64,000 nucleotides of DNA. Origin: Sphagnum compactum. Taxonomy: Eukaryota. The stretch spans positions 8,742,001 to 8,806,000 of the forward strand of contig OZ234494.1 of assembly GCA_965153455.1 (NCBI GenBank), given 5' to 3'. Below, piece after piece: positions 29,734 through 64,000 of this stretch (the first letter of the stretch is position 1; the number at the start of each line of letters is the position of its first letter). The notes beneath the pieces were generated by a model. It saw only the letters and a list, made by a program, of their open reading frames with translations. It ran no database searches and had not been told where the DNA came from. The position numbers were made by a program, and so were the translations under genes.

Positions 29734-32700
29734 ATGACAGGAATCTTTCAGATCTTTGACCGCTACAATGCCCTGAGTGCTCGCAAGAATCATGCCTCCA
29801 AGAACCATAACAATCATGGTAACATGATCAGAATCAGTTCAGATTCTTTCATACTGCACTGATCATGCAGCAGATCATCTGAACCATTGTGTTTCATCAA
29901 GAGCTCCAGTTGGGGCAAACTTGCTTCCTTGTTTGCAAATGTTTGTCCTGAGCATGCTCTTGTATTATAACCTAAAGCATCTTGCAAGGATCATGTTTGT
30001 TCTTTTGTAGGAAACCAATCTGACCAGATTGTCTTTTTTGTCTTGCCATGGCAGAGGAGCTTGCAGCAAAAGACAACATCATCCCCTCCTACTATTTGGT
30101 AAACCCCTTCACAAATTGCTGCAAAATTTCTTGTTTGTCTTCATTTGCTCTGGGTCTGGGGTGAAGAAGGAAGAGTTGTACAACCCATGCTGCAAGCAAC
30201 AATCTTGCATTGTGGTGTGGAATTGAGAGAATCATGCCAAACTTTTGGGTGATTTCAAGGAGAAGGGACATAGATCTTACCATTGATGTGGTGAGTTTTT
30301 GTGCAGCTTCAAGGCGATGATTACATGCACAGAGGTCCACTTGATTTTGTTGAGCGACCAAGAAAGGAACATGCAGAGGCCTCAGGAGACTCAATGGGTG
30401 TTGTCTACAGGACTTCCACTAACAACAAGAAGCACATTGAGGTCAATGTGTCGGTGAACTCCTTGTCCAATGTTTTGAATGAGCTTCAACCAGGTGAAGA
30501 AGAGCAAAAGCTTCTTCGAGTGTCTGGTGTTGCCTTTCAAGAAACTAAATCAAGACATGGTGTCTTGTTTCCTGATGCACAGAAAGAGCTTGAAGATGGA
30601 AGCCCAAACTCAATGTCTGGTAAAGAACAGAGTCCTTCACAAAAGCCGCACAACATTCAACCTTCAGAGGCTCCTCCTTCACAGATATTCCTGTCCAGGC
30701 TTTCTTCTGTCAGCAATGACAGCAGAGATTCCATCAAAAGAGGATCGAAGCAGCTTCCACCACGGGACACAAGAAGTACTACCTTGCATGCATCAAAGCA
30801 TAAGGAAAAGCCAAGGACATTGTTGTCATCAGTGCAGGACAGCAGCAGCAAGGAGGTTTTTGCTGCAGCTGCTTCTCCAACTGATTCCAACAAACTTGTT
30901 ACTCAGGTTCTAATGCAGATGAAGGAGTTTTCACAGAGATCTTCTGATGAAAAGGTCCAAGCAGCTGGTCGCAGATATCACTCATCTGGTGATGAAACAG
31001 AAGGACGTACACAAGGTCGCAGGAATCAGTTGTCTGGTGATGAAAGTCTGGAACACCAACATAATATGAAGGAAGCCAGTGCCAGACATGGTGGTAAGGA
31101 TAAAGTAAATGAGAGGATTCACCAGTCCTCCAGAGCAAAGGAAGCTCGACTAGGACACCTGGAACTCCCTCCAAACGAAGGTTGCAAGCATCAGTCTTCT
31201 GTGAGGGAAGGTCACAGGTTTTATGCCACATCAAGTGACCAAAAAAAAATTCAAAGACAACACTACTCATCTGCTGCTGATGGGAGGAAGGAGGAGCACA
31301 GAGATAAGAACTCATCTTTGAAGGAATTCCATTACAAGTATCCATCATCTGGTGATGACAAGCATGGTGACTGTCACAGATACATGATCCCCTCTTTGAA
31401 CAAAAGAGAACTTGTTGGTGATGGAGATTATGCAATTGAGAACCAAGATCCAAGGTACAGGTCAGGCAATGCTAAGGAGAACAAAGGTCATCAAGTGCAA
31501 TCAGAATCTGGTGATGAGAAGAAAGGTGGTAGATACATGCATGCATCTGTTGGTGTGAAAGGCAGAAGAAGTCCTTTTTTGGGGAAGAACAATGGTCACA
31601 AATATCGATCTTCTGGTGATGAAGAATGGGAGGGGGGTCAAAGACTACATGACTCATCTGACCATGACAAATGGAAAGACCACAAACTCCAGTTACCTGT
31701 GAAGGAATTTGCTGCTGATGGAGAAGAACAAAGACAAGGTCACAAGTCCCCTGATAATCATCAACAGGAAGCTGGTCATAGATTTCTTGCATCAAGAAAT
31801 GGGAGAGTTGAAGGCAATACAAATTCCTTGCATGCAAAGGAGGTGCATGAATACTGGTCGGAATCATCTAGTGATGAAAGAGAAGTAGAACTTCTTGGTC
31901 ACAGACATGAATCATCTGCTGATGAAATGAACTTACAGGGCAGAAATCAATTGTTGTCTGCACCAAAAGGTCAGAGACATGATCAATCTTCTTGTGATAA
32001 AGGGGAAGGTCAAAGATTCCGCTTATCCCATGACAGCAGAGAAGATGCTTATAGACATCAATCATCATCTGAAAAGGAACTTGATGTAAAGCAGGCTCAA
32101 AGCATTCAGTTGCCTCATAGCCATCAAGAGAAGGATCGTCGCAGATATCTTGCTGCTGGTGATGGGAGGAAACTTAGTCCCAGTGGAGATTATTCATCAC
32201 AGCAGGAAGGTCACAGGCATCAATCTTCTTGTGATGAAGGGGGAAGCCAAGGATCACAATTAGAGTCCAGGCTTGACAGAAGGAATAAGCTTGGCCACAG
32301 AACTCACTTACCTGCAATGGAATTCATTGCAGATGCAGAGCAGCAAGGTACTATAAGCTATCAATCACCAAGATATCATCAAGAGAATACTCTTAGATAT
32401 ATTGCACCTCGTGATGAGAGGGAAGGTCAGAGAATGAATTTGCATAGAAAGCACAGGCACTGGACATCTGACGATGAGAAATTAGGCCACAGATCTCAGT
32501 CATCTGCTGATGTGAGGAAAGGCCCTGGTGCAAATACATCACCAGCACAGGAGGAAGGTCACAGATATCGATCTTCTGGTGATGAAAGGAAAGTTCGTGA
32601 GAGAAGGCAATTATCCCACGTCAACAGATGGGAAGGTACTCAACAGCACTTCTCTGATGGTGGAGGGCACAGACAAAGTTATCTGTCATATTGGGATCAT

Positions 32701-35700
32701 CAAGAGAAGGGTGGCAAGGGACACAGGTCTAATTCCTATGCAAAGGGAGTGCACAGATCAGTGTCATCTGGTGATACACAGGGATGTCACCAATTTCAAG
32801 AAAGATGCAGAGATCGATCACTTGTTGCTGAAACTTGGACATATAAGTCATCAGGCACTGATGATGTGGAGGAAAATCAAAGAATGAAAAGCAGTAGAAC
32901 TTTGAGGGAAGCTCAAAGGTTTACTACATGTTCTAGTGATGAAGGAGGTGGACCTCACAGCCATCACTCATCATCACGCCATCGACAGCAGTCAGCCTCT
33001 GTCAAAGATTCAGCTCAGACACATCAGTCTTCAGCAGATGACAGAGGGGAAGGCCATAGGTCTCCATCTTCCCTTGATCTAAATGAATTTGAACATAATC
33101 ATTCTTCTGGTGACATAATGAGACACCATAAATCTGACTCTTCTTATGATCAGAATGAAGCTGAATCCAAACATTGCTTCTTGAGGAAGCCTGGCAAAAG
33201 CAACAAGCATCTTGCCCAGGCTGTTGATCAAGAAGCCAAAGCTCATAGACATCATCATCATCATCATCAGTTCACCTACAGTGATGAAGAGGAGGAATGC
33301 CAGAGACATGATTCAATTGATGACAGTAGAATTGGTCACAGAGACCATTCTGGTGCTGCTAAGGATGCAAGGCAAAGATATGAATCATCTGGTGATGAAA
33401 AGGGAGGAGGTGCTCACTGCTCTCACTCATCTGCTGATGAAATGAACAGTCAGAGGCGCAAATCATATGGAGGTCACAGAGAGGTCTGGTATGGTGATAG
33501 TGATGAAGGTTACAGACACCAGAGTTCTCTTGGGTTGGAGGAGGGTCACATGCACCTTCATCAGAATGTTTTGGCTTCCCCTAAGCACATAGAAGAAGAG
33601 CTTTCACCCACCTCTGATGTCAACTCAGCTCCATCAAAAAAGGCGTTTGCCAGGGAGGGAAAGTGGTTGCAATGGTTGGCAATTTCAACTTCACAAGCAG
33701 AAGCCACCTCATCAACCTCAAATCAATCCAAGTCAGACGACCATATGAAGGAGGTAGGCGAGATAGGCTTCAAGCAGTTGAAGCAAGTGTCTGCAAGACC
33801 TCAGCAAAGCTCACTGCTGAAAGAAAATTATGCAATGGTTAAGCCAAGGCTGAGGCCCAGGTCACGGTCAAGGTCAATGTCTCCTTCTGCTTCTTCACAA
33901 TACAAAAGAGACCTGTACAGAATTGAATCCCAACGGCCACAGCATGTGACTTCAAAGTCAAGTCATCAAGAAGGGGATCAGCCATGGCACAAGCAGCTCA
34001 TGTCCTCAAAGCATCTCCAGATGGAAGCAATGCCCCTTGTATTAAAGAAGCCACAGGTGGAGCATCCCCCCACTGAAGGACTGCTTGGGGAGGGTATGAT
34101 ATCAGACCAACGGTTGCACCAGTTACGCATTAAGAATGGCCTCCAGGAACATAAAAGCCTGAGGCAAGTCTTGGAGGCCATGCATCTCAAAGGATTGTTA
34201 AAACAGCCAAGGGGCAACAAGCAGGTAATTATGCTCAATGCAAAATTTCCTGCTGGATTGGGATCATCAGTACAAGAAGCACAGTCACCACCTTTGCGAG
34301 AAGCAAAGATTATGCCATCTTCAGCAGTGTCCAATTTAGCCAGATCAGGGAGCATGGATCGGGAGTACCAGGATATGGTGGAATTTCAGGATATGCTTAA
34401 GGAGGAAACCAAGGCTCATGAAGAAGCAACTGCACAAGAACTCAACCAAGGTACAGAGGCCCCCATAGTGCTAATGAAGCCCTGCAGCCACCAAATCCCC
34501 AGTCCTGCTCCTGCTCCTACTCCTTCCCCAGCTTTGCAGCAGATTTTAGAGTTGGAGAGCAAGGCCAGCCCAGTGTACAATGGCTTAGCAAAATCACCAA
34601 CCACGGTCACAGCTCCCACTGGCAATGATAGAGAAAATCAGAATGAGAGCAGCTGCACCAGGTACTATGCTTCTGTTTCTTTCCAAACCCTGAGAATACA
34701 CTGGAATGATATCAGTTTGTTGTTCCCTTGTAAGCTGCACTTCCCCGTTTGTGGCACAAAATTGGCCTGTGAAGAAGAATCTGCTTTATAAATTCCTTTG
34801 TTTTAGGAATAACAATTTTGAATCTTTTGTGACAGGGGTAGGAGATCATTGAGTGGAAGAGCATTGAATAAGAGGAGGTCATCAAGATCCCGTTCACCAT
34901 CAAGGCGGCATTCACAAGAACCAGCAGAATCTCATTCCATGTTGGAGGAGCAGGTGCTTAGTGCAAGGACCTCAAAGAGTGAATGCATTAATACAGCAGA
35001 CAAAAGCAGATTTTCTTCTAAGTTTGAAAAATCTGGAGAAGGGTTCATCCTCAAGGTGAATTCCCGACTACTGCTTCCTCTGCATGCAGGGCATCGCACC
35101 TCATCAATGTCAAAGACTCCAGTCTTTCCAAGTAGTGGAACCGAGACTTCTGATAATGTAAGAGCTAGTCAAGAAGGGTCAAGAAGAACTGATGACTCAA
35201 GCCCAAGACATTGTCATGCAAACATGAAATTTCCAATGGCTACTTCAGAAGACAAAGAGGAGTCTGAGTCTACAGTGATGCTGATGACATCAGGATCAGA
35301 ATCTACTTGCATTCTGCAAGAACCCTCCTCCTCCTGCTTAAAAAACAAATTTTCTGATGAAGAAGGTTTAAAATCTGTTGAAGCTGCTGCAATTCAAACA
35401 AGGCCAACAACAACAACCAAAAACAAGAGCCAGTTGAAACTGAAAACAAGAGTGCCATCAGTTGAGCTAGGTTTGCAGACTGTGGTTTCAGTGATGGATA
35501 GTTCTGATGCCTCCCCTCTGTCTGCTAGTCCCAGAAGCACCACAGCAGAAGAACTCACTAAGTTAATCAAAGAGAAACAGGAATCACTATCAGAGGTGAC
35601 TCAAGAAGCACTTAATGGTCAAGGTCTTGAGTATCAAGCTCCACATCAGGGTGGTGATGGCAGAGCTCAAGGCTCATTTGTTATCCACATCAATTCATCA

Positions 35701-37031
35701 GGTTGTTTCAATAGTGGATGCCAAGAGGCAAAGCTCATTGAATCAACTGGAAACCAGGTTAGTTCTTTTGCATTGATTTGCCTGTGGAGAGGCAGGGCAG
35801 GGGAGGTAAGCAAATACCAAAATGTTTCACTAGGTTTATGAGGCCAAGTGTCAGAAAATACTTCAGAGATAGCAAGGACATTAAAAAGTAGACAAAACCC
35901 ATAAAAACAAATGCTGACCTTGTAGATCTGTGCAGGTTGTTGCTGTTACAAAGCTTTCAGATGGTGTTACAGCAGGAGTTTCATTGATGAAGCAGCAAGT
36001 TGCTGAAGAGGAGGAGGAGGAGGAGGAGGAGGAGGAGGAGATGGGAGAATTAGCTGGAAATGCTAACCATCCAAGCCCTGTATCTGTGCTTGACAGTGCA
36101 AGTTTTGAGGAAGAAGAACTCACTCACACTCCAGAGTGTGTGAAATCAAGCACCATCAGTCATGAAGGTAAAAGGAGCTGGATGGTTTCATGTTATGTTT
36201 TTCTTACTGAAAGAAAAAAAGTGATAGTAAGCTGATCTAAACATGTGGTTTGCATTAGCAAATTTGTAAGTATACTATCACCATGTAGTTTGCAATTGGA
36301 AAACTATAAGGATTCAAATTAGTGGTTCACTCAAAAATAAATGACAATTTCTGTGGTAAGCAGGGAACTTGCACTCTGTCAACAGTGAGCAGCAGCAATC
36401 TTACAATAAGCTTCCCAGCTTCCTTGATGGAGAAAAATGGGACATACTGTTGAAGACTCAAAACTCCCCTAACAGGTACCAAGATGATGAATGGGCATAT
36501 TATGTGAAAGAGATTCTTGCAATGTCTGGGCTTATCATTGAAGAGGCATGCCCTTGCATTGATGCAGTTCCAAACAAAAGCATTAAATCTGTTATGAAGA
36601 CAGAGGAATTGAACTCTCAGCTGAAGGAATCATCAAGTGTGCAGGAGGATAAAGAGAAGGGAAATAGAGAGGACAACAAGATGATGATGTTCCAACAGAG
36701 CCTCCTCCACCAACAACTGTTGACCAATGGTGTGAAAGAGATTGTAGGAAATGGTATGAAACCATTCACAGATCCACAACCATGGGGTGCTCCAAACTTG
36801 AGAAGGAAACCTGCTGGACAACATTTGATTCAAGAGGTCTGGGATGAGTTACAAGACATGCATTGTCCTGTTACAGATGCATACAATGTAATTCTCAAAA
36901 AGGACTTGACACGGAAGGCATCCCAATGGCGAGATTTTAGCATTGAGATTGGGGAGGTTGGTTTTGAGTTAGGGGATTTGATTTTTGAGGAGATGTTGAA
37001 GGCAGCAGTGCAGGAGTTGATGGCACTGTGA
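29734..37031 (+). CDS. LONGIFOLIA-like TON1-recruiting-motif (TRM) protein with DUF4378-type C-terminus, ~2080 aa
   Basis: Motifs: N-terminal MTGIFQIFDR, KSLRQVLEAMHLKG, PIVLMKP, HPSPVSVLD, and C-terminal WRDFSIEIGEVGFELGDLIFEEMLKAAVQEL. Phase-consistent exons: 29734-29818, 30011-30098 (uncertain), 30411-34661 (5' end uncertain), 34836-35757, 35936-36167, 36364-37031. Confidence 0.82.
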
Positions 37032-46838: not shown

Positions 46839-49800
46839 TCAAGAGAAAATCTCCAGAAAATTCGGCAACTTAGTAGGACTTTTGTAGCAGTGGGTGGTGG
46901 CATCATAAGAGGATTCTGATCTTGCTGGTGTGGACGGCATTGAGTATGAAGGCTCGGACCTCCAGTCTGACTGCCCCAAATACTCGGAATTATCACATGA
47001 AGAAGAAGAGTTGTATGAAGAAGGTGGTGGACTGTAGTAGTAGGTACTAACAGAAGACCCATAAGCAGGTTGTTCATATGCAGAGGCTCTCAGGACTGAG
47101 GTTCCATAACTGGGTTGAAAGTAAGAAGGAGATTTATGATGATGGTGGTGGAAGGAAGACTCATACACTGGGTCCAAGTATCCTTGAGATGGTTTTGCAT
47201 AAGAGGAATAGGATGGTTCATATGAGGAGTAGGAGTTGTAATCAAGTAAAGAACAGTCTCTGTAGCTTGCATGCTGCTGCTCCTCATAATCAGCACAAGC
47301 CTTGGGATCATAAGAACCGGGAGTGTAAAAGGATGTGCGCAAAGAAGCATGGGGATAGGTGACATATGCTGATGTCTTCACTTCACTTGCTTCCTCTGGT
47401 GCTGGTGCAGCAGCCTCAGCAGGAGGAGCAGCAGCATCTTCTGCTGGAGCTGTAGAGGCCGGTTCTTCAGTAGGTATGGCAGCAGCTGCAGCTGCTAATC
47501 TCTCCTTGCGCTCCTCTGAGAGCCATTCTGCAAACCTGTCCAGTAAATGCAGGTAGTTAGTTATATGTAGCTTATTGAGACTTTTATTTTTCTCTTGAGT
47601 TTAAAAAATTCAAAAAAAAACACAACACAACACACAGATGTTAGGGCAACTCTGCCACTGCTCAGTATGTGACCCTATAAATTAACATTGGATGAAGAAA
47701 AGTCAAATCATGCCGGTTTGGCTCAGCAAAATGGTTTTTGCCCAGCATTTTTTCACATTTTGCTGAGACTGGTAAAAGGCACTACAAAGCCTAACACCTA
47801 CCAGAGAAAAGAGTAATAAATATGATCTAACTGCTGCTCCCTGTTTCTGATTGACCAATCACAATGATTGGTGCTGTTGGTTTGCTATTAGTAGTCTCCC
47901 ACCTATTTGCAGTCCCAGTTTTAGTCTTATGGGTGGGGTTGGAAAAAAGTAAATAACTAAACTTGGATGTGAGAAATATTTTTGCAGGGTCACATACTGA
48001 GCACCACTGCAGATGCTCTTACTAGCATGACTTTAATAGTTTTTTGTTTGAGTCTTGACTTAGTGTGGGTAATATGAGAGCATCATACCTGTAAAGGGCT
48101 TCTCGGTTTGTTCCAGCATTTGGGATGGAGGTGAGCTTCCCAGTTTCAAAGTTGCGCTCCGAAACAGGCTCATCCAGTAGATGTTTTGCAAAGTTAATCA
48201 GTCTATATAAGCTAGCCGGGCTGGTTTCATCCACCCCTGCTACACGCCCCTTCAGATTATCCGACTGCAATTTTGAAACACAGACAAATTTAGTCTCATA
48301 ATATCCAATCTGTAAACACCCACCATTGCAATCTGAGGCTCCATCCACTTCACATGAATTCCTCAATCACAGATGGCAACCTGAGACCCAACTTGGCTAC
48401 CATACCCAAATCAGCATGCAATTTTTTTGGGGTTTTTTTCATTAGCATTTCAACAAGAAAATCTGATACCAATCTTCAAGGTTTTTGCACCCAACACCTT
48501 CATTGAAAGACAAATAAAGACCACATAAAATGAAGACTATTTTGGATTTTGTCCAGCACTACTGCTAGAACTGCTTTCACAGTATACTAATTATGTACCT
48601 GGATACGGAGGTAGTTTGTGCCACAACTCTGAGACTGAAAGATGGTGGAGAGGTTGTAGTCCACCATATCTGCACTTGCATTGTACACCATGTCCACCAG
48701 AGGGGCATCACCCTTGTTGATAAGCCAGTCGCGCACACCCCATTTGGAGATCTCCTTTGCACTGTATCCTACAGTTTGCTGTCCTGTGCCGAGAGAGAGA
48801 ACTAAGAGATCATTGTAATTCTGCACATTTTCCACAAGATTTAACAGTGGGTGGGTCATTAAGGTTAAAAAAACGCAACCATTAGACACTAACATGCTAT
48901 TGACCTAATGGGAAAAACGCAAACCGGCAACCAAAATTTAGAGCTTCCTTCAAAGCACTGCTCTTAATGTTTCCAACAATCACGAGCAATCAACAGCACT
49001 GTAACTCCATGATTCCCTTGCAATCATACTTGGATCCATTCATCAGCCTAAAGGCACCTATAAAATATATCACATTTGATCCCAAGGAAATTGGTATACC
49101 TATGACTACAAGCAAAAGCATGATACAAAAATAATGAAATTACTTTGTCAAGGTTGGATGTAAAGTAGGACCAAAACCCATCATAAAATTGTTGAACATT
49201 GAATGGTTTTCAGTTAAATGATCAAAGATAAAGACACTATCAAACACTAGATCACAGTTTGTTCTCGAAGCATAAGCTGAGTCCTCAGAACAAAAGCTTA
49301 ACCTTGTTGCCCAAGCCATCCACCAATTCAAAGTACTAATGGATGTCAATAATCTGACCTTGACATTCTCTTCTTTCCAAAAGTTAGGGTGACATGGGCT
49401 TCTGCGATATGTGAGGATGTGGTGATGTTGCAAGATCTCTTGCATTGCTGCAAATGGAGATCTAGATACACATGAAGATTATAGTCAAGAATCACTAACC
49501 GTAAATGTCACTCTTCCAGCAGCTTTGCCACCAGATTGCACCTCCTTAATCGCCTGGGTGATTGCCACATATGTCTGCCATAATTTCCATGCCAAAAAGG
49601 ACTTCTGAGCAAAGAATTGAAATTCCTCTGGTTCCAAAGAGAATGAGACTTGTCAAGTTCTTCCTACGTCTTCAGATAATCAAGCATCTGGAAACAAGCT
49701 TGAAGCATTCATTCAAGAGTGTTCAAAATCAATGAGTATTAGGCTTGGTGGCATCAAACTCTAGTCCAAAAATTCAGAAAAATCTTGTAAGGGGATGAAA

Positions 49801-59831: not shown

Positions 59832-61445
59832 GTACAGCTTAGTAGGTAGTAGAGCACACATTACTGTGAGATCAAATTATAACAAGCACTTGGTCAATAA
59901 TGGTGTTATGGCTCTGCCCTTAAGGCAATTTCAAACTTAAAACTTCACTCAGTGTTGGTGGGACATAGTGTAATTCATATTAATTAGTTCATGGGTGCAG
60001 TCACACTTTTTTTCTTTTTTTCTCTTTTTTTTGGGGAATGAGTCACATTGACCAAGGGTTTTGGAAGTTTGGGCAAACCATATGGGATAAATCTGAGGTG
60101 CTATTGGGAACGTATTCGGGGAACAGCTGGAGAACTTGGGGAACCTCATGAGAACATGATAAGAGCACATTGGGAACAAGGGAAATAAAACAAAAGAATC
60201 CCTCCCCAACCCTCCCCGCCCCCCAGCCCCCCAAGAAAAAAAATTGGACCCTCTCATGAGGGCATGCTGAGTCTTCTCATTGGTTACATGAAACTTTTAT
60301 TTCGAAAACTTCTTGTCACCATTTTTGGCTTGGACTAATGGCAAGGTCACAAACTGTGGGACATAGTATCTTAAACTTCTCATAAGTGTTTTGGGGGGGC
60401 GGGAAACTTGAACAATATGATTTTAGCACATACAATGAATTTTTTTGAAAAGTATGGCCCTAATTTGCAAGATTTTGAATTTTCAAAGAAAACTGCCAGA
60501 TTTCTACATCAGGTTCCAACAAGTAGCAAAATATTTTTTAAATTAAAATTTTGCTACTTTCACATTTGGTCTATAGCCAAATTTGGCTAAATCTTTTTTT
60601 GGATAATCTCCAATTGGGCTACATAACAAAATTGAAAAAAAAAAAAAAAAAAAAACACCATGCTTCTCATCTAGATGCATGCATCACATTGTCATTCACA
60701 AATTGTGTCAAATTTGAGCCAAAATTTTTATGCCCAAATCCTACACCGATATGTAGTCTATTTGAGCCAATAAGCAGCACATGCATTGTAAGAAGACTAC
60801 AAAAATGGATAAAATTATGACTTTTACCTCATTGATGTGTCATGAACCAGGCCTTTGTCATAAACGACTTATTCAACAAAAAAAAGTTAATGTATAACAG
60901 TTGAGATTTCCACGATCTGACCAATTGTACTATGAGTTTCAGTATGTAAAGTGCCAAGTGGGGGGGGGGGGATTAAGGTAAACCATATCATGTGATGAGG
61001 GGAAGGACCCACAGTCTTCCCTTGTGGGTTGATTAAAACTTTGAAAGCTCCAAACCCTTCTTTGGCTTTGGATTCTTTTTGGAAACTATGGGAGAAAAAG
61101 TCTGATCCTGCCTGCCATGTGACAAAAGATTCTTCCTTATTAGTATAAAGCACCCAAAGAACACTGACTCTGGGAAAGAACCCGGTTGTGATCAATTTTG
61201 TAAATTTCTATAACGTACGAACGGACACTAACTTATTTGTCCAGTCATGCAAACAAAACAGGAATGCAAAAAAGCTGGCCTTCCAGAGATTCTCTCTGGA
61301 GGAAACACAATCAAAGTTCTTCACTCCGAGATCCTATTTTTGGGCATCTCCATTTGTTCCAATAATTGTTTTTGTGAAAGGCCAATCGAATTGGCCCCTT
61401 GTAACCCAAAGAAAAAGGTAGTACTTCACTCCAGTCAGTACTTAC

Positions 61446-64000
61446 TAGAGTCCTGCAATGGGTACCCATACCCATGGGTACCCAATACCCACCCATACCC
61501 ATGGGTAAATGGGTGGGTAATGGGTATGGGCTTGGACGCATGGGTGGGTAATGGGTGTGTACGAGGGACCCGGGCTTTACAACGACTGAGTTAGCAGATT
61601 ATAGGGCGACTCGTCGTATAGTAGTCAGTAGTGATAGCTCTCGGATTGCGTCACGCTAATAGCTATTAATAGCTCATCAGCATTGTGCTGTGGTGATGAG
61701 CTATTAATAGCCTGGCGTAATCCGAGCTGGCATTAGCTTGGAGGGTCCACTGGTCCAGGAATCGGGATTCGGGTGGGAGTGTGCACTGCTTATTTATGGT
61801 TTCTTAGATTCATGGATTCTTTCAAGCAGCCGGCGGCGGCTAAGTAATCTGGTAGCTGATCATCATCATTAATAAAGCAGTATTACTACTACTACCCAGT
61901 TTCCAGATCATTAGCATCTAGATTCTAGACTTGGTTGAAGAGAAAGAAGATCCACCACCACCACCACAAGAAGAAGAAGAAGAATGGAGAAGCATGAAGA
62001 AGTAGAAGAAGAAGAAGACTGAAGAAGCCTGAAGAAGAAGAAGATCATCAGCATCATATATAATTACTAGATCACCAGATGAACTGAAAATTATTCCGCT
62101 CCCCCATATCATTAATTACATAGAAATGGCTGCTGAATGAAATTGGTTTTGCTGCAAATTAAATTATTTTTGCTTGGACCTAGCATGCTTCACAACTTCT
62201 AAGAGTTTTTTCCAAAGTCTTTGCCATAACAACACACTGTGGATTCTGGAAGAGCGGCTACGAGCTGATGCCGGCCATGACGTTGGCTCAGCGAATTGAA
62301 CATGACCTGAAGAACAATGGGGGGGAGTACGTGATTCGCAACAACGGGCCAGGCAAGAAGTCGGGTGTTTGGGAAGCGTTCGGCATCATCTACGATCGTA
62401 GCAACGTAAAGCTAGATTATGCTGCTTGCAAGTCCTGCAACAAAGTTTATACCTTCAAAACCAGTACCGGCACGGCTACGATCTCAAAGCACAAATGTCC
62501 TGTTCCCGCCTCCGAGGTAGCCGCCGCGAAGGTGTTCTTTAAGAAGCACATCGTCACAAAGCAAGAAAAAGAGACGATGACGGCAGCGGCGGCCGACTAC
62601 TGCGTGACCGACATGCGCCCGTTCGAGTCTCTGAGCGGGTTGGGCCTCAAGGCGCTCATCCAGACGGCGCTTGACATCGGATCGAGCAGCACTGGCCGAA
62701 TCACAATCGACGAGCTGCTCGCCAACCCGACGACGGTCAGTCGTAACGTCGATTCACATGCTCGGAACGGCCGCGAGAAGCTCACCCTCGTTCTCAAGAA
62801 GCACTTCGACTCGGGCTTGAACGTGGCATGTACTCTCGACTTGTGGACGGACACGGTCAAGAAGAACTCGTACATGTCCATCACCATTCATTACATCGAT
62901 GAGATGTTCAATCTGTACGCCCGCACGCTGCACGTAAAGCCTGTTGAGGAAGCCAGCCACACGGCGGAGATGGTCCTGGAGGAGTTCAGTAAAGGTCTGG
63001 CCGTGTTCAAGGTAATGGTGGACATGTACCAGCAGATCATCGTGGTCTCGGATAGCGATTCGAACTGCTGTGGCGCTAATGGCATCCCGTCGGCTTTCTA
63101 CTGGCTTGCCTGCCTCGATCACAAGCTGGCGACTGTGCTGACGACTGTCGTGAACAAGATGACCAAGATGGAGAATGGCGTCAGGAACAAACCGTTCTAC
63201 TGGTACAAGGACGTCCAGCACATGCTGCCGCTGTTCATGCTGATCGACACGTGCAAGAAGCTGGTTGAGTACTGCAAGCGCGCGAACCTGCAGAGCCAGC
63301 TCAGCAAGACGCTCAAGCAGGAGAACGCAACTCGATGGAACTCGCTGCTCCGCTGCCTTCTAAGCATCGAGGAAATGTACGACGAGCTCGTGTCGCTCCT
63401 GCAAATGAAGGACAAGCTGAGCAAGCTCAATGACATTTCGCGGGCACTCCTCAAGGAACTGATCGCTTTCCTTGCCCCCTTCCAGCAGGCGACGCTGGCG
63501 CTCGAGAAGTTCAAGCACCCGACTCTTCACAAGATCGTGTGGTGGCGCCATGTGATCCTGGGTCACCCTCGGCTGGTCCTGAACGATGTGGTGGACGAGG
63601 ATGGCAACGTGATGACGGCCAAAGACTCCGACTCGATCAAGGCAATCAAGGGCATCATGCTGCCGTTCTTGTACAGCAAGTTCGTCCTTGATGATATCCA
63701 CGTCATGGCGTCGTTGCTAGATCCAATCATGAAGTCTCGTCTTGTCCGCCTTGGTGTTGAGCGCAACCAGATCGAGCAGGCCAAGGATAAGCTCAAGGAT
63801 GCGATGATCAAGTACGCGCCCTTGGACGACGAAGAAGAAGACGTTCCGCCTGCTCGATCACCGATCAGGAAGAAGGCGCGCTCGTCAGTTTCGATGCACA
63901 ATCAGATGCTCGACGACGACGATGAGGAAGACAACGTCCCTCCTGCTGAAGGTCACGATGCCGCCGCCGCCCTCAACGCAAGAGTCGACAACGAGTACGA
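61446..64000 (+). mobile_element. Putative autonomous hobo/Hermes-type hAT DNA transposon (left portion)
   Basis: Left end TAGAGTCCTGCA is preceded by GTACTTAC (GTnnnnAC). TACCCA/TGGGTA subterminal repeats lie at 61459-61556, followed by the transposase ORF. The right end is outside the window. Confidence 0.85.
62268..64000 (+). CDS. hAT transposase, intronless, at least 577 codons, 3'-truncated by the window edge
   Basis: Open frame read by hand from ATG 62268 to the window end. BED finger (SGVWEAF...CKSC...SKHKC), DMRPF, CTLDLWTD (1st Asp), VVSDSDSN (2nd Asp), CLDH (CxxH), TRWNS, MASLLDP. Confidence 0.95.
   Translation, partial: MPAMTLAQRIEHDLKNNGGEYVIRNNGPGKKSGVWEAFGIIYDRSNVKLDYAACKSCNKVYTFKTSTGTATISKHKCPVPASEVAAAKVFFKKHIVTKQEKETMTAAAADYCVTDMRPFESLSGLGLKALIQTALDIGSSSTGRITIDELLANPTTVSRNVDSHARNGREKLTLVLKKHFDSGLNVACTLDLWTDTVKKNSYMSITIHYIDEMFNLYARTLHVKPVEEASHTAEMVLEEFSKGLAVFKVMVDMYQQIIVVSDSDSNCCGANGIPSAFYWLACLDHKLATVLTTVVNKMTKMENGVRNKPFYWYKDVQHMLPLFMLIDTCKKLVEYCKRANLQSQLSKTLKQENATRWNSLLRCLLSIEEMYDELVSLLQMKDKLSKLNDISRALLKELIAFLAPFQQATLALEKFKHPTLHKIVWWRHVILGHPRLVLNDVVDEDGNVMTAKDSDSIKAIKGIMLPFLYSKFVLDDIHVMASLLDPIMKSRLVRLGVERNQIEQAKDKLKDAMIKYAPLDDEEEDVPPARSPIRKKARSSVSMHNQMLDDDDEEDNVPPAEGHDAAAALNARVDNEY

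Follow-up and report, generated by a model that had tools for sequence, protein, structure and literature searches.

A recently inserted, decaying Hermes-type hAT transposon in Sphagnum compactum and the probable horizontal spread of its family among bryophytes

We have analyzed a 64,000-nt stretch of the Sphagnum compactum genome (contig OZ234494.1 of assembly GCA_965153455.1, positions 8,742,001-8,806,000 of the forward strand), hereafter called the window, in which an autonomous-type hAT DNA transposon with target sites of the Hermes/Ac type occupies positions 61446-64000; approximately five-sixths of the element, counted from its left end, are included. As a whole, our results are best explained by a Hermes/Ac-type hAT which inserted recently and is now decaying, and whose family has spread horizontally among bryophytes; we regard this combined explanation as reasonably probable. 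The element itself is an ordinary hAT, and the pattern across bryophytes is the part of most value for follow-up.

The ends of the element are defined by its relatives. A scan of metagenome contigs gave 61 loci (labelled L) which encode 74-91% identical proteins and whose DNA is 91-95% identical to the window in the open reading frame (ORF) region. Blastn alignments extend to window 61438-61449 for 21 of these 61 and past it to the left for none, and the element therefore starts at 61446. This is the position at which the original prediction had placed a left end with a terminal inverted repeat (TIR). The left TIR of the window copy, TAGAGTCCTGCAATGG (61446..61461, + strand), is found as the same end in related loci. 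The family consensus of the left end, CAGAGTCCTGCAATGG, starts with C, while the first base is T in the window copy and in L007; some family copies begin CAAAG. Complete copies end on the right in ...CAATGCAGGACTCTG. Short TIRs of 10-25 bp are typical of the hAT superfamily (PMC3942097), and the left CAGAGTCCTGCAATGG, the right CAATGCAGGACTCTG and the window TIR at 61446-61461 are all of this kind.

Directly 5' of the TIR lies the 8-mer GTACTTAC (61438..61445, no strand assigned), the presumed left copy of an 8-bp target-site duplication (TSD). Only this left 8-mer is visible for the window copy, and the duplication itself is found at the family level: of the 17 cases in which a left and a right end pair up on the same contig, the 8-bp flanks are identical in 9 (7 distinct insertions) and differ by one mismatch in 4; the last 4 show 4-5 mismatches and resemble mispaired or nested copies. 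In the target logo, the second base is T in 28 of 36 distinct flanking 8-mers and the seventh is A in 29. The resulting nTnnnnAn pattern is the reported target preference of Hermes (PMC10368747), whereas Buster elements are reported to prefer nnnTAnnn (PMC3517528). The window 8-mer agrees with the family logo, which bears out the earlier suggestion that it fits a Hermes-type target. Because of this target pattern, together with a PF10683 domain in the protein, the element is assigned to the Ac/Hermes-type rather than the Buster-type group.

Next to the TIR the window carries 11 ATGGGT/ACCCAT subterminal repeats (61458..61575, + strand), i.e., 11 within the 130 nt of 61446-61575, whereas the remainder of the window averages 0.08 in a stretch of this length. 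The ATGGGT repeats of L034, a complete copy, are concentrated at its two ends only. The Hermes BED domain is reported to bind subterminal repeats (PMC10368747), and by analogy the ATGGGT repeats are presumed to be binding sites of the transposase through its BED domain. Complete copies are 2571-2606 bp long, or 3315-3690 bp where they contain an additional insert. Judged from L034, approximately 504 bp of the element lie past the window end, where a right end ...CAATGCAGGACTCT(G/A) followed by a second GTACTTAC is predicted. At the DNA level, the family is a real hAT transposon with TIRs, subterminal repeats and 8-bp TSDs. In two loci (L010, 154-3053; L015, ~2576-2700), copies have inserted into subterminal repeats belonging to other copies. 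The target duplicated by these nested insertions, GTGGGTAC, is the subterminal motif itself and matches the target logo, and the element may therefore tend to hit its own ends.

The transposase ORF (62268..63998, + strand) comprises the first 577 of approximately 675 codons, starts with ATG, has no intron and is truncated by the window end; the surrounding stop-to-stop frame begins at 62184. The earlier count of at least 577 open codons without a stop in the window is thereby confirmed. The ORF is colinear with P0002, a 679-aa relative which is 90% identical (relatives are labelled P). By its sequence the window protein is a Hermes-type hAT transposase, as originally proposed. All five matches at E<=1 in a search of PDB sequences are Hermes (top 8edg_A, E 8e-32, residues 10-421). 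A BED-type zinc finger (C54, C57, H75, C77; 62427..62498, + strand) aligns to the Hermes N-terminus, and its model matches the Hermes BED structure 8eb5_A (TMt 0.76, root-mean-square deviation 2.1). It is followed by the Hermes-type DNA-binding domain, residues 94-156 (62547..62735, + strand; Pfam PF10683, E 4.3e-7, 30 bits vs a cut-off of 20.5).

The key hAT residues are listed in Hermes numbering as D180, D248, R318, W319 and E572 (PMC6027215). Alignment to Hermes places the first catalytic Asp, D191 (Hermes D180), in TLDLWTD (62838..62840) in a column which is invariant among relatives, and the second, D262 (Hermes D248), at 63051..63053, in agreement with the alignment of relatives. C282 and H285 of the CxxH motif (Hermes C265 and H268; 63111..63122) are likewise placed by the Hermes alignment, and both columns are invariant among relatives, while R356 and W357 of TRWNS (Hermes R318 and W319; 63333..63338) are placed by a HMMER alignment to Hermes; these four features are all on the + strand. 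The third catalytic Glu falls past the window end, but in P0002 it is present, aligned to Hermes E572 and located inside the C-terminal hAT dimerisation domain PF05699, which is also outside the window and which P0002 carries at E 5.2e-18. An AlphaFold model of the window protein, based on an 18-sequence alignment, has a mean predicted local distance difference test score of 80.3. Foldseek ranks 1-11 for this model are Hermes chains (E 1.7e-20 to 2.1e-16), and the next family is the P element transposase (E 9e-4). As in Hermes, the model and the Foldseek matches give an RNase-H-like fold interrupted by a helical insertion domain.

The composition of the element differs from that of its surroundings. 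The transposase ORF has a GC content of 55.3%, a third-position GC content (GC3) of 76.6% and an observed/expected (o/e) CpG ratio of 1.12, vs a GC3 of 34-47% and a CpG o/e of 0.07-0.21 in four long host ORFs in the window. The earlier description of a CpG-rich reading frame with G/C-biased third positions is thus accurate. Window 1-61445 has a GC content of 37.4% and a CpG o/e of 0.30, and the composition shifts sharply at 61446. The host DNA is strongly CpG-depleted (ORFs 30295-37031 and 46839-47600; window 1-61445), and the flanks of the related metagenome loci, with a CpG o/e of 0.36, are near the DNA of the window host in this respect. Because of these low values in ORFs, window and flanks, the CpG scarcity suggests heavy gene-body and genome-wide CG methylation in both the window host and the metagenome hosts.

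A copy consensus was made from the 46 loci which span the whole ORF region and which represent 38 distinct copies after collapse at 99.5% identity. All 38 contain 1-6 stop codons, and the majority consensus is open. The window copy differs from the consensus at 35 of 1763 sites (2.0%) without indels and is the least diverged copy seen, while the other copies differ by 4.5-7.7% (median 5.45%). When C>T and G>A changes are set aside, the divergence is 0.34% for the window and a median of 0.57% for the copies, which makes both bursts recent. C>T rates in the copies are 11.7% in CG, 15.4% in CHG and 4.0% in CHH contexts, and every other substitution class lies at 0.07-0.54%. This is the decay expected from deamination of methylated cytosines with a plant-type methylation pattern. 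Among the 35 window differences, 30 (62314-63959) recur in 1-19 other copies in shifting sets, which reflects strong C>T hot spots. A subfamily signal in the window differences was considered and rejected, as the shifting sets represent hot-spot homoplasy; the exceptions are four T>C/A>G sites (62848, 62999, 63279 and 63353), three of which are common mainly to the copies of 'variant B' described below. Due to the hot-spot recurrence, trees of copies are unreliable.

The window copy is young, as the original prediction held: besides the 2.0% distance from the consensus, it differs by approximately 1% from contigs of its own species, and a sister organism has a probable empty site. Reads and contigs were compared for the window's own species (organism A) and for this sister organism (organism B). 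Sampled words of 60446-64000 are present at 0.51-0.73 in organism A runs of three studies, at 0.47-0.48 in organism B and at 0.33 in moss metagenome runs. One contig of organism B run X9 (3640 nt, single-copy depth) aligns to 60668-61445, showing 15 differences and 5 gaps, and departs from the window sequence exactly at 61445 (contig position 808). Element contigs of organism A run X4, from a study other than that of the run with most words, differ from the window at 8/862, 2/242 and 9/839 sites (19/1943, ~1%). Among the 22 listed differences between the window and X4, 16 have A/T in the window against G/C, which points to private deamination in the window copy.

Searches for relatives gave 49 matches at first, 98 with a profile and, in an exhaustive search, 5949 at E<=1e-3, of which 138 at E<=1e-30. 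Members of the same family were found in Sphagnum magellanicum (P0011, P0017 and P0023), Riccia fluitans (P0087, on a 76.6-Mb contig) and Marchantia polymorpha (P0028 and P0131, from two assemblies), in all cases as gene models drawn over decayed copies. Differences from the consensus were classified as deamination-type when they are producible by C>T or G>A alone from the consensus codons. P0011 and P0023 are 91.9% and 91.2% identical to the consensus, with 25/33 and 26/30 deamination-type differences, respectively, and P0087 is 85.5% identical over 311 aa with 31/45. The Marchantia proteins P0028 (70.7%) and P0131 (70.5%) have 61/123 and 46/69. In the truly diverged P0020, P0021, P0022 and P0032, which are 52-55% identical to the consensus, only 9-17% of the differences are of this type. 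Since 50-87% of the differences are deamination-type within the family (41% in P0017) vs 9-17% in the diverged relatives, the ancestors of the moss and liverwort copies encoded almost the same protein, and the present differences come mainly from the length of decay. Once deamination-type changes are discounted, 14/311 residues separate Riccia from the moss consensus.

A tree of 44 rows, from which Hermes, hobo, Ac and Tam3 were left out, agrees with this. The window protein, three metagenome proteins, two Sphagnum proteins, Riccia and the two Marchantia rows form one clade (Shimodaira-Hasegawa-like approximate likelihood ratio test, SH-aLRT, 100; stem 0.40). Its inner branches measure 0.006-0.027, and its end branches 0.033 for the window, 0.04-0.07 for the metagenome and Sphagnum proteins, 0.12 for Riccia and 0.35-0.37 for Marchantia. 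Aphanomyces euteiches (P0040) and a different Marchantia hAT (P0032) belong to the sister clade, while Chara (P0039/P0043) and a further Marchantia element (P0142) are found deeper in the tree. Rows named as insect or fish branch far away from these groups; the insect rows Sergentomyia P0160 and Ladona P0211 are 27-31% identical and lie outside a 31-row streptophyte and oomycete clade. Hermes, hobo, Ac and Tam3 do not appear by name among the 98 matches of the profile search or the best 150 of the 5949; 7 of 20 clusters checked for names had one. Additionally, no relative was found in viral contigs, and a search of prokaryote genome contigs for the TIR pattern gave no match. The oomycete proteins P0040/P0041 (Aphanomyces euteiches) fall inside the streptophyte-dominated clade beside P0021 (60% identical), a placement which may represent a second cross-kingdom transfer.

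As the split between mosses and liverworts dates back hundreds of millions of years, a star of near-identical proteins is not predicted by vertical descent. The star, together with a CpG o/e of 1.12-1.17 in elements whose hosts have 0.07-0.36, makes repeated horizontal entry, i.e., horizontal spread of the family among bryophytes, the best reading. The original suggestion of a horizontal acquisition thus stands as far as movement of the family among bryophytes is concerned, but not in its descent from insects or hobo: the insect relatives are distant, the nearest clades contain Marchantia, Chara and an oomycete, and nothing points to an insect donor.

Extrapolating from Hermes, the family may work as follows. 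The transposase combines a BED finger and a DNA-binding domain of Hermes type with a DDE core of RNase-H-like fold, into which a helical domain is inserted. It would attach to the 16-bp TIRs as well as to the ATGGGT subterminal repeats, cut the element out and integrate it again at 8-bp targets of the nTnnnnAn type. The window copy would have inserted at GTACTTAC after the window host split from its close relative, organism B, and would since then have been decaying as methylcytosines in CG and CHG contexts are deaminated; one such change, G264D, probably cripples the enzyme. In its GC3-rich and CpG-rich coding sequence the family appears alien to hosts which are poor in CpG. Mosses (the window host, Sphagnum and the metagenome hosts) and liverworts (Riccia and Marchantia) carry copies which are near-identical but have decayed differently. 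These would then result from horizontal transfers that occurred repeatedly among bryophytes, or that came from an unmethylated reservoir common to them, and not from descent from a common ancestor.

Several observations weigh against this explanation or limit it. The Sphagnum protein P0017 is 85.5% identical to the consensus, with only 24/58 (41%) deamination-type differences. The tree was made by a quick method with SH-aLRT support only, and forks inside the star are unresolved. The comparison across phyla is between gene-model proteins, from which synonymous divergence relative to host genes is not measurable. The organism B site is a probable empty site because its contig leaves the window exactly at 61445, the sequence past that point not being shown. 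No listed organism A read or contig crosses 61445/61446, and the Hi-C sample X21, with 118 reads of which 100 match only partly, is too thin for the junction or for copy number. A word depth of approximately 26 in the X4 element contigs vs 3-10 in the flank contigs hints at several element copies in organism A, the depth being rough and giving no copy number. At least 3 of the 23 'replacements' by which the window protein differs from the consensus are ancestral states, as the consensus was built from other hosts. The damage attributed to G264D is probable and is judged from conservation. Finally, the poly(A) RNA of organism A (X22) has zero depth in the ORF bins 62218-63727, a result from one library of which ~12% was read.

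A more specific version of this history is possible, and we put it forward tentatively: one nearly unchanged hAT lineage may have invaded mosses and liverworts several times, and near-consensus sister copies of the window element in its own species may still transpose. The invasions would then have reached Marchantia earliest, followed by Riccia and Sphagnum, with the window host latest. As the CpG-rich and GC3-rich composition points to a place without DNA methylation, the lineage would have been maintained in a reservoir of that kind. If true, the family would be mobile across bryophytes in nature and might serve as a native tagging tool for them.

No transfer would be required if the hAT were old and had been inherited vertically since the common ancestor of mosses and liverworts, its protein being kept by selection on active masters combined with slow bryophyte evolution. 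The wider clade is largely streptophyte (Chara P0039/P0043, Marchantia P0032/P0142), which is in line with such descent, as is the restriction of the cross-phylum comparison to proteins. However, the inner branches between mosses and liverworts are very short (0.006-0.027) compared to the stem of 0.40 which leads to a sister clade holding another Marchantia element, and Riccia is only 14/311 residues from the moss consensus without deamination-type changes. A CpG o/e of 1.12-1.17 and a GC3 of 77% are also unlike a long stay in hosts with a CpG o/e of 0.07-0.36, and the organism B site would lack the insertion. We therefore find vertical inheritance unlikely, and horizontal spread remains our preferred reading.

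It is similarly improbable that the window copy is a still-active autonomous element which encodes a working transposase and can move. Its 577 codons are open without an indel, D191, D262, CxxH and RW are present, and it is both the least diverged copy seen and a recent insertion. Yet G264D (GGT>GAT; 63057..63059, + strand), two residues past D262, replaces a Gly which 16/16 distant relatives share with the family consensus and Hermes (G250); the same G>A change recurs in L028, L034 and L040. The first TIR base has changed from C to T, the ORF bins have no poly(A) RNA reads, and the last ~98 codons are outside the window. The 35 window differences comprise 23 non-synonymous and 12 synonymous changes, against a neutral deamination expectation of 501:449 plus 31 stop-giving changes (31/981), and the window copy thus gives no signal of purifying selection. 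The frame would stay open after 35 deamination changes with a chance of approximately 1 in 3, and for this reason the open frame is weak evidence of function. The window keeps the ancestral state lost from the metagenome consensus at T194, R338 and probably position 196. Collectively, the copy is probably not functional. The earlier term 'intact' holds for the open frame without indels but not for the protein, which has 23 replacements relative to the consensus including one at an invariant Gly, and 'possibly active' finds no support. In the RNA data more widely, X22 contributes 29 reads, all partial matches at low-complexity spots, and the RNA metagenome runs X16-X20 hold 0.06-0.10 of the words, which gives no evidence of expression or habitat.

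An assembly artefact or a contaminant joined to plant sequence might produce the sharp composition change at 61446 and the lack of a listed organism A contig or read across the junction. The break lies, however, exactly at the TIR and is preceded by a fitting target 8-mer, organism A runs of three studies contain 0.51-0.73 of the words, and the leader segment of 454 bp recurs in element contigs of both organism A and organism B. Moreover, C>T decay at CG and CHG is the mark of a stay in a plant-type methylating genome, and the 61 related copies lie in AT-rich, CpG-poor flanks like those of the window. An artefact is thus very improbable. We give even less credence to a domesticated hAT-derived host gene of the ZBED/DAYSLEEPER kind, which the long open frame and the ZBED1-like names of some relatives might suggest, as the element has a TIR, subterminal repeats and TSDs, belongs to a multi-copy family in which 38/38 compared copies are dead, appears to be absent at the orthologous site in organism B, and has neither a synonymous excess (23:12) nor RNA; the single-copy domesticated gene named in the original prediction as a counter-reading is at odds with the ends and TSDs of the family and its 38 distinct dead paralogues.

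The leader between the left end and the ATG contains two further features. An imperfect palindrome formed by the inverted repeats I1/I2 (61640..61726, + strand) is kept in related copies and has a DNA fold of -30.5 kcal/mol (z -6.3). A 454-bp lineage-specific segment (61784..62237, + strand), with a GAA microsatellite at 61969-62038, has a counterpart in 0/61 metagenome loci: 26/38 distinct copies connect 61783 straight to 62238 via a common TGTG, and the other 12/38 have a different insert of ~730 bp immediately before the ATG ('variant B'). Since contigs of organisms A and B contain the 454-bp segment, it is part of the element version of that lineage. An intron at 61784-62237 was considered and rejected, as the TGTG borders allow five registers of which none gives GT..AG, and no RNA joint was seen. 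A bacterial promoter scan of the leader gave a site count not above shuffles and is of no relevance to a plant.

Elsewhere in the window, 47877-47992 (117 bp) is 83-86% identical to part of the ~730-bp insert in L009, L037, L041, L044, L046, L047 and L049, and looks like a small repeat common to both hosts which is nested in the variant B subfamily. Window 1-61400 gave no megablast match to the flanks of the loci and, by blastn, 24 short repeat matches (66-86%). A host exon at 30295-37031 (+ strand; 1498 codons, low-complexity and rich in Ser, Gly, His and Arg) is followed by a DUF4378 exon (PF14309, E 2e-15), and the two are probably parts of one large plant gene. All Atlas neighbours of the DUF4378 exon are streptophyte, in line with a streptophyte host, while a homologue search with this exon gave no match. 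No Rfam family was found in the window. Among the relatives, P0082 (373 aa, in the P0030 cluster) is a metagenome gene model labelled 'site-specific DNA-cytosine methylase' by its source, which may reflect a chimeric model or a neighbouring gene.

Transfer of DNA transposons from plant to plant is still thinly documented. One study describes reports of such transfer as scarce (PMC4958966), and our literature search found no report of hAT transfer in bryophytes. A 2018 survey is reported to have detected no hAT in Physcomitrella (PMC6027215), and hAT elements are reported to make up 2.3% of the Ceratodon autosomes (PMC8245031). The family described here can be traced at four decay stages in hosts separated for hundreds of millions of years, and it holds a very clean record of deamination driven by CG and CHG sites. 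Nucleotide copies would make it possible to measure when and in which direction transfer occurred, and how fast methylation leads to inactivation.

Compared to known systems, the element most resembles Hermes of Musca domestica (PDB 8edg, 4d1q and 2bw3). They share domain order and fold (sequence E 8e-32; Foldseek E 1.7e-20, TMt 0.53-0.62), the residues D180, D248, C265/H268 and R318/W319 are matched in the window and E572 in P0002, and both have 8-bp nTnnnnAn targets and subterminal repeats near both tips. In contrast, the window protein is only ~22% identical to Hermes in the structural alignment, the family has a 16-bp TIR of different sequence, and its repeat unit is ATGGGT compared to the AAGT/AAGC sites given for Hermes (PMC10368747). 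The hosts of the window family are bryophytes, and the named insect relatives are far off in the tree. The family TIR CAGAGTCCTGCA agrees at 10/12 positions with what we take to be the TIR of hobo from Drosophila. Ac and Tam3 of angiosperms belong to the same superfamily and have the same Ac-type, not Buster-type, target pattern. The sister-clade elements (Marchantia Mp_7g09770, i.e., P0032, together with P0020-P0022 and P0040/P0041 of Aphanomyces euteiches) have the same architecture at 46-55% identity, and P0040 is 54% identical to P0002 over 353 aa; they nevertheless form a separate family, with 9-17% deamination-type differences from the consensus in P0020-P0022 and P0032. The closest parallel for movement is the reported transfer of hAT genes from Brassicaceae to broomrapes (PMC4958966). 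There too, hAT sequences moved horizontally between plants, but as described in that source the case concerns expressed genes passing between parasite and host among angiosperms, whereas the window family consists of mobile copies with ends, decaying in several bryophyte lineages.

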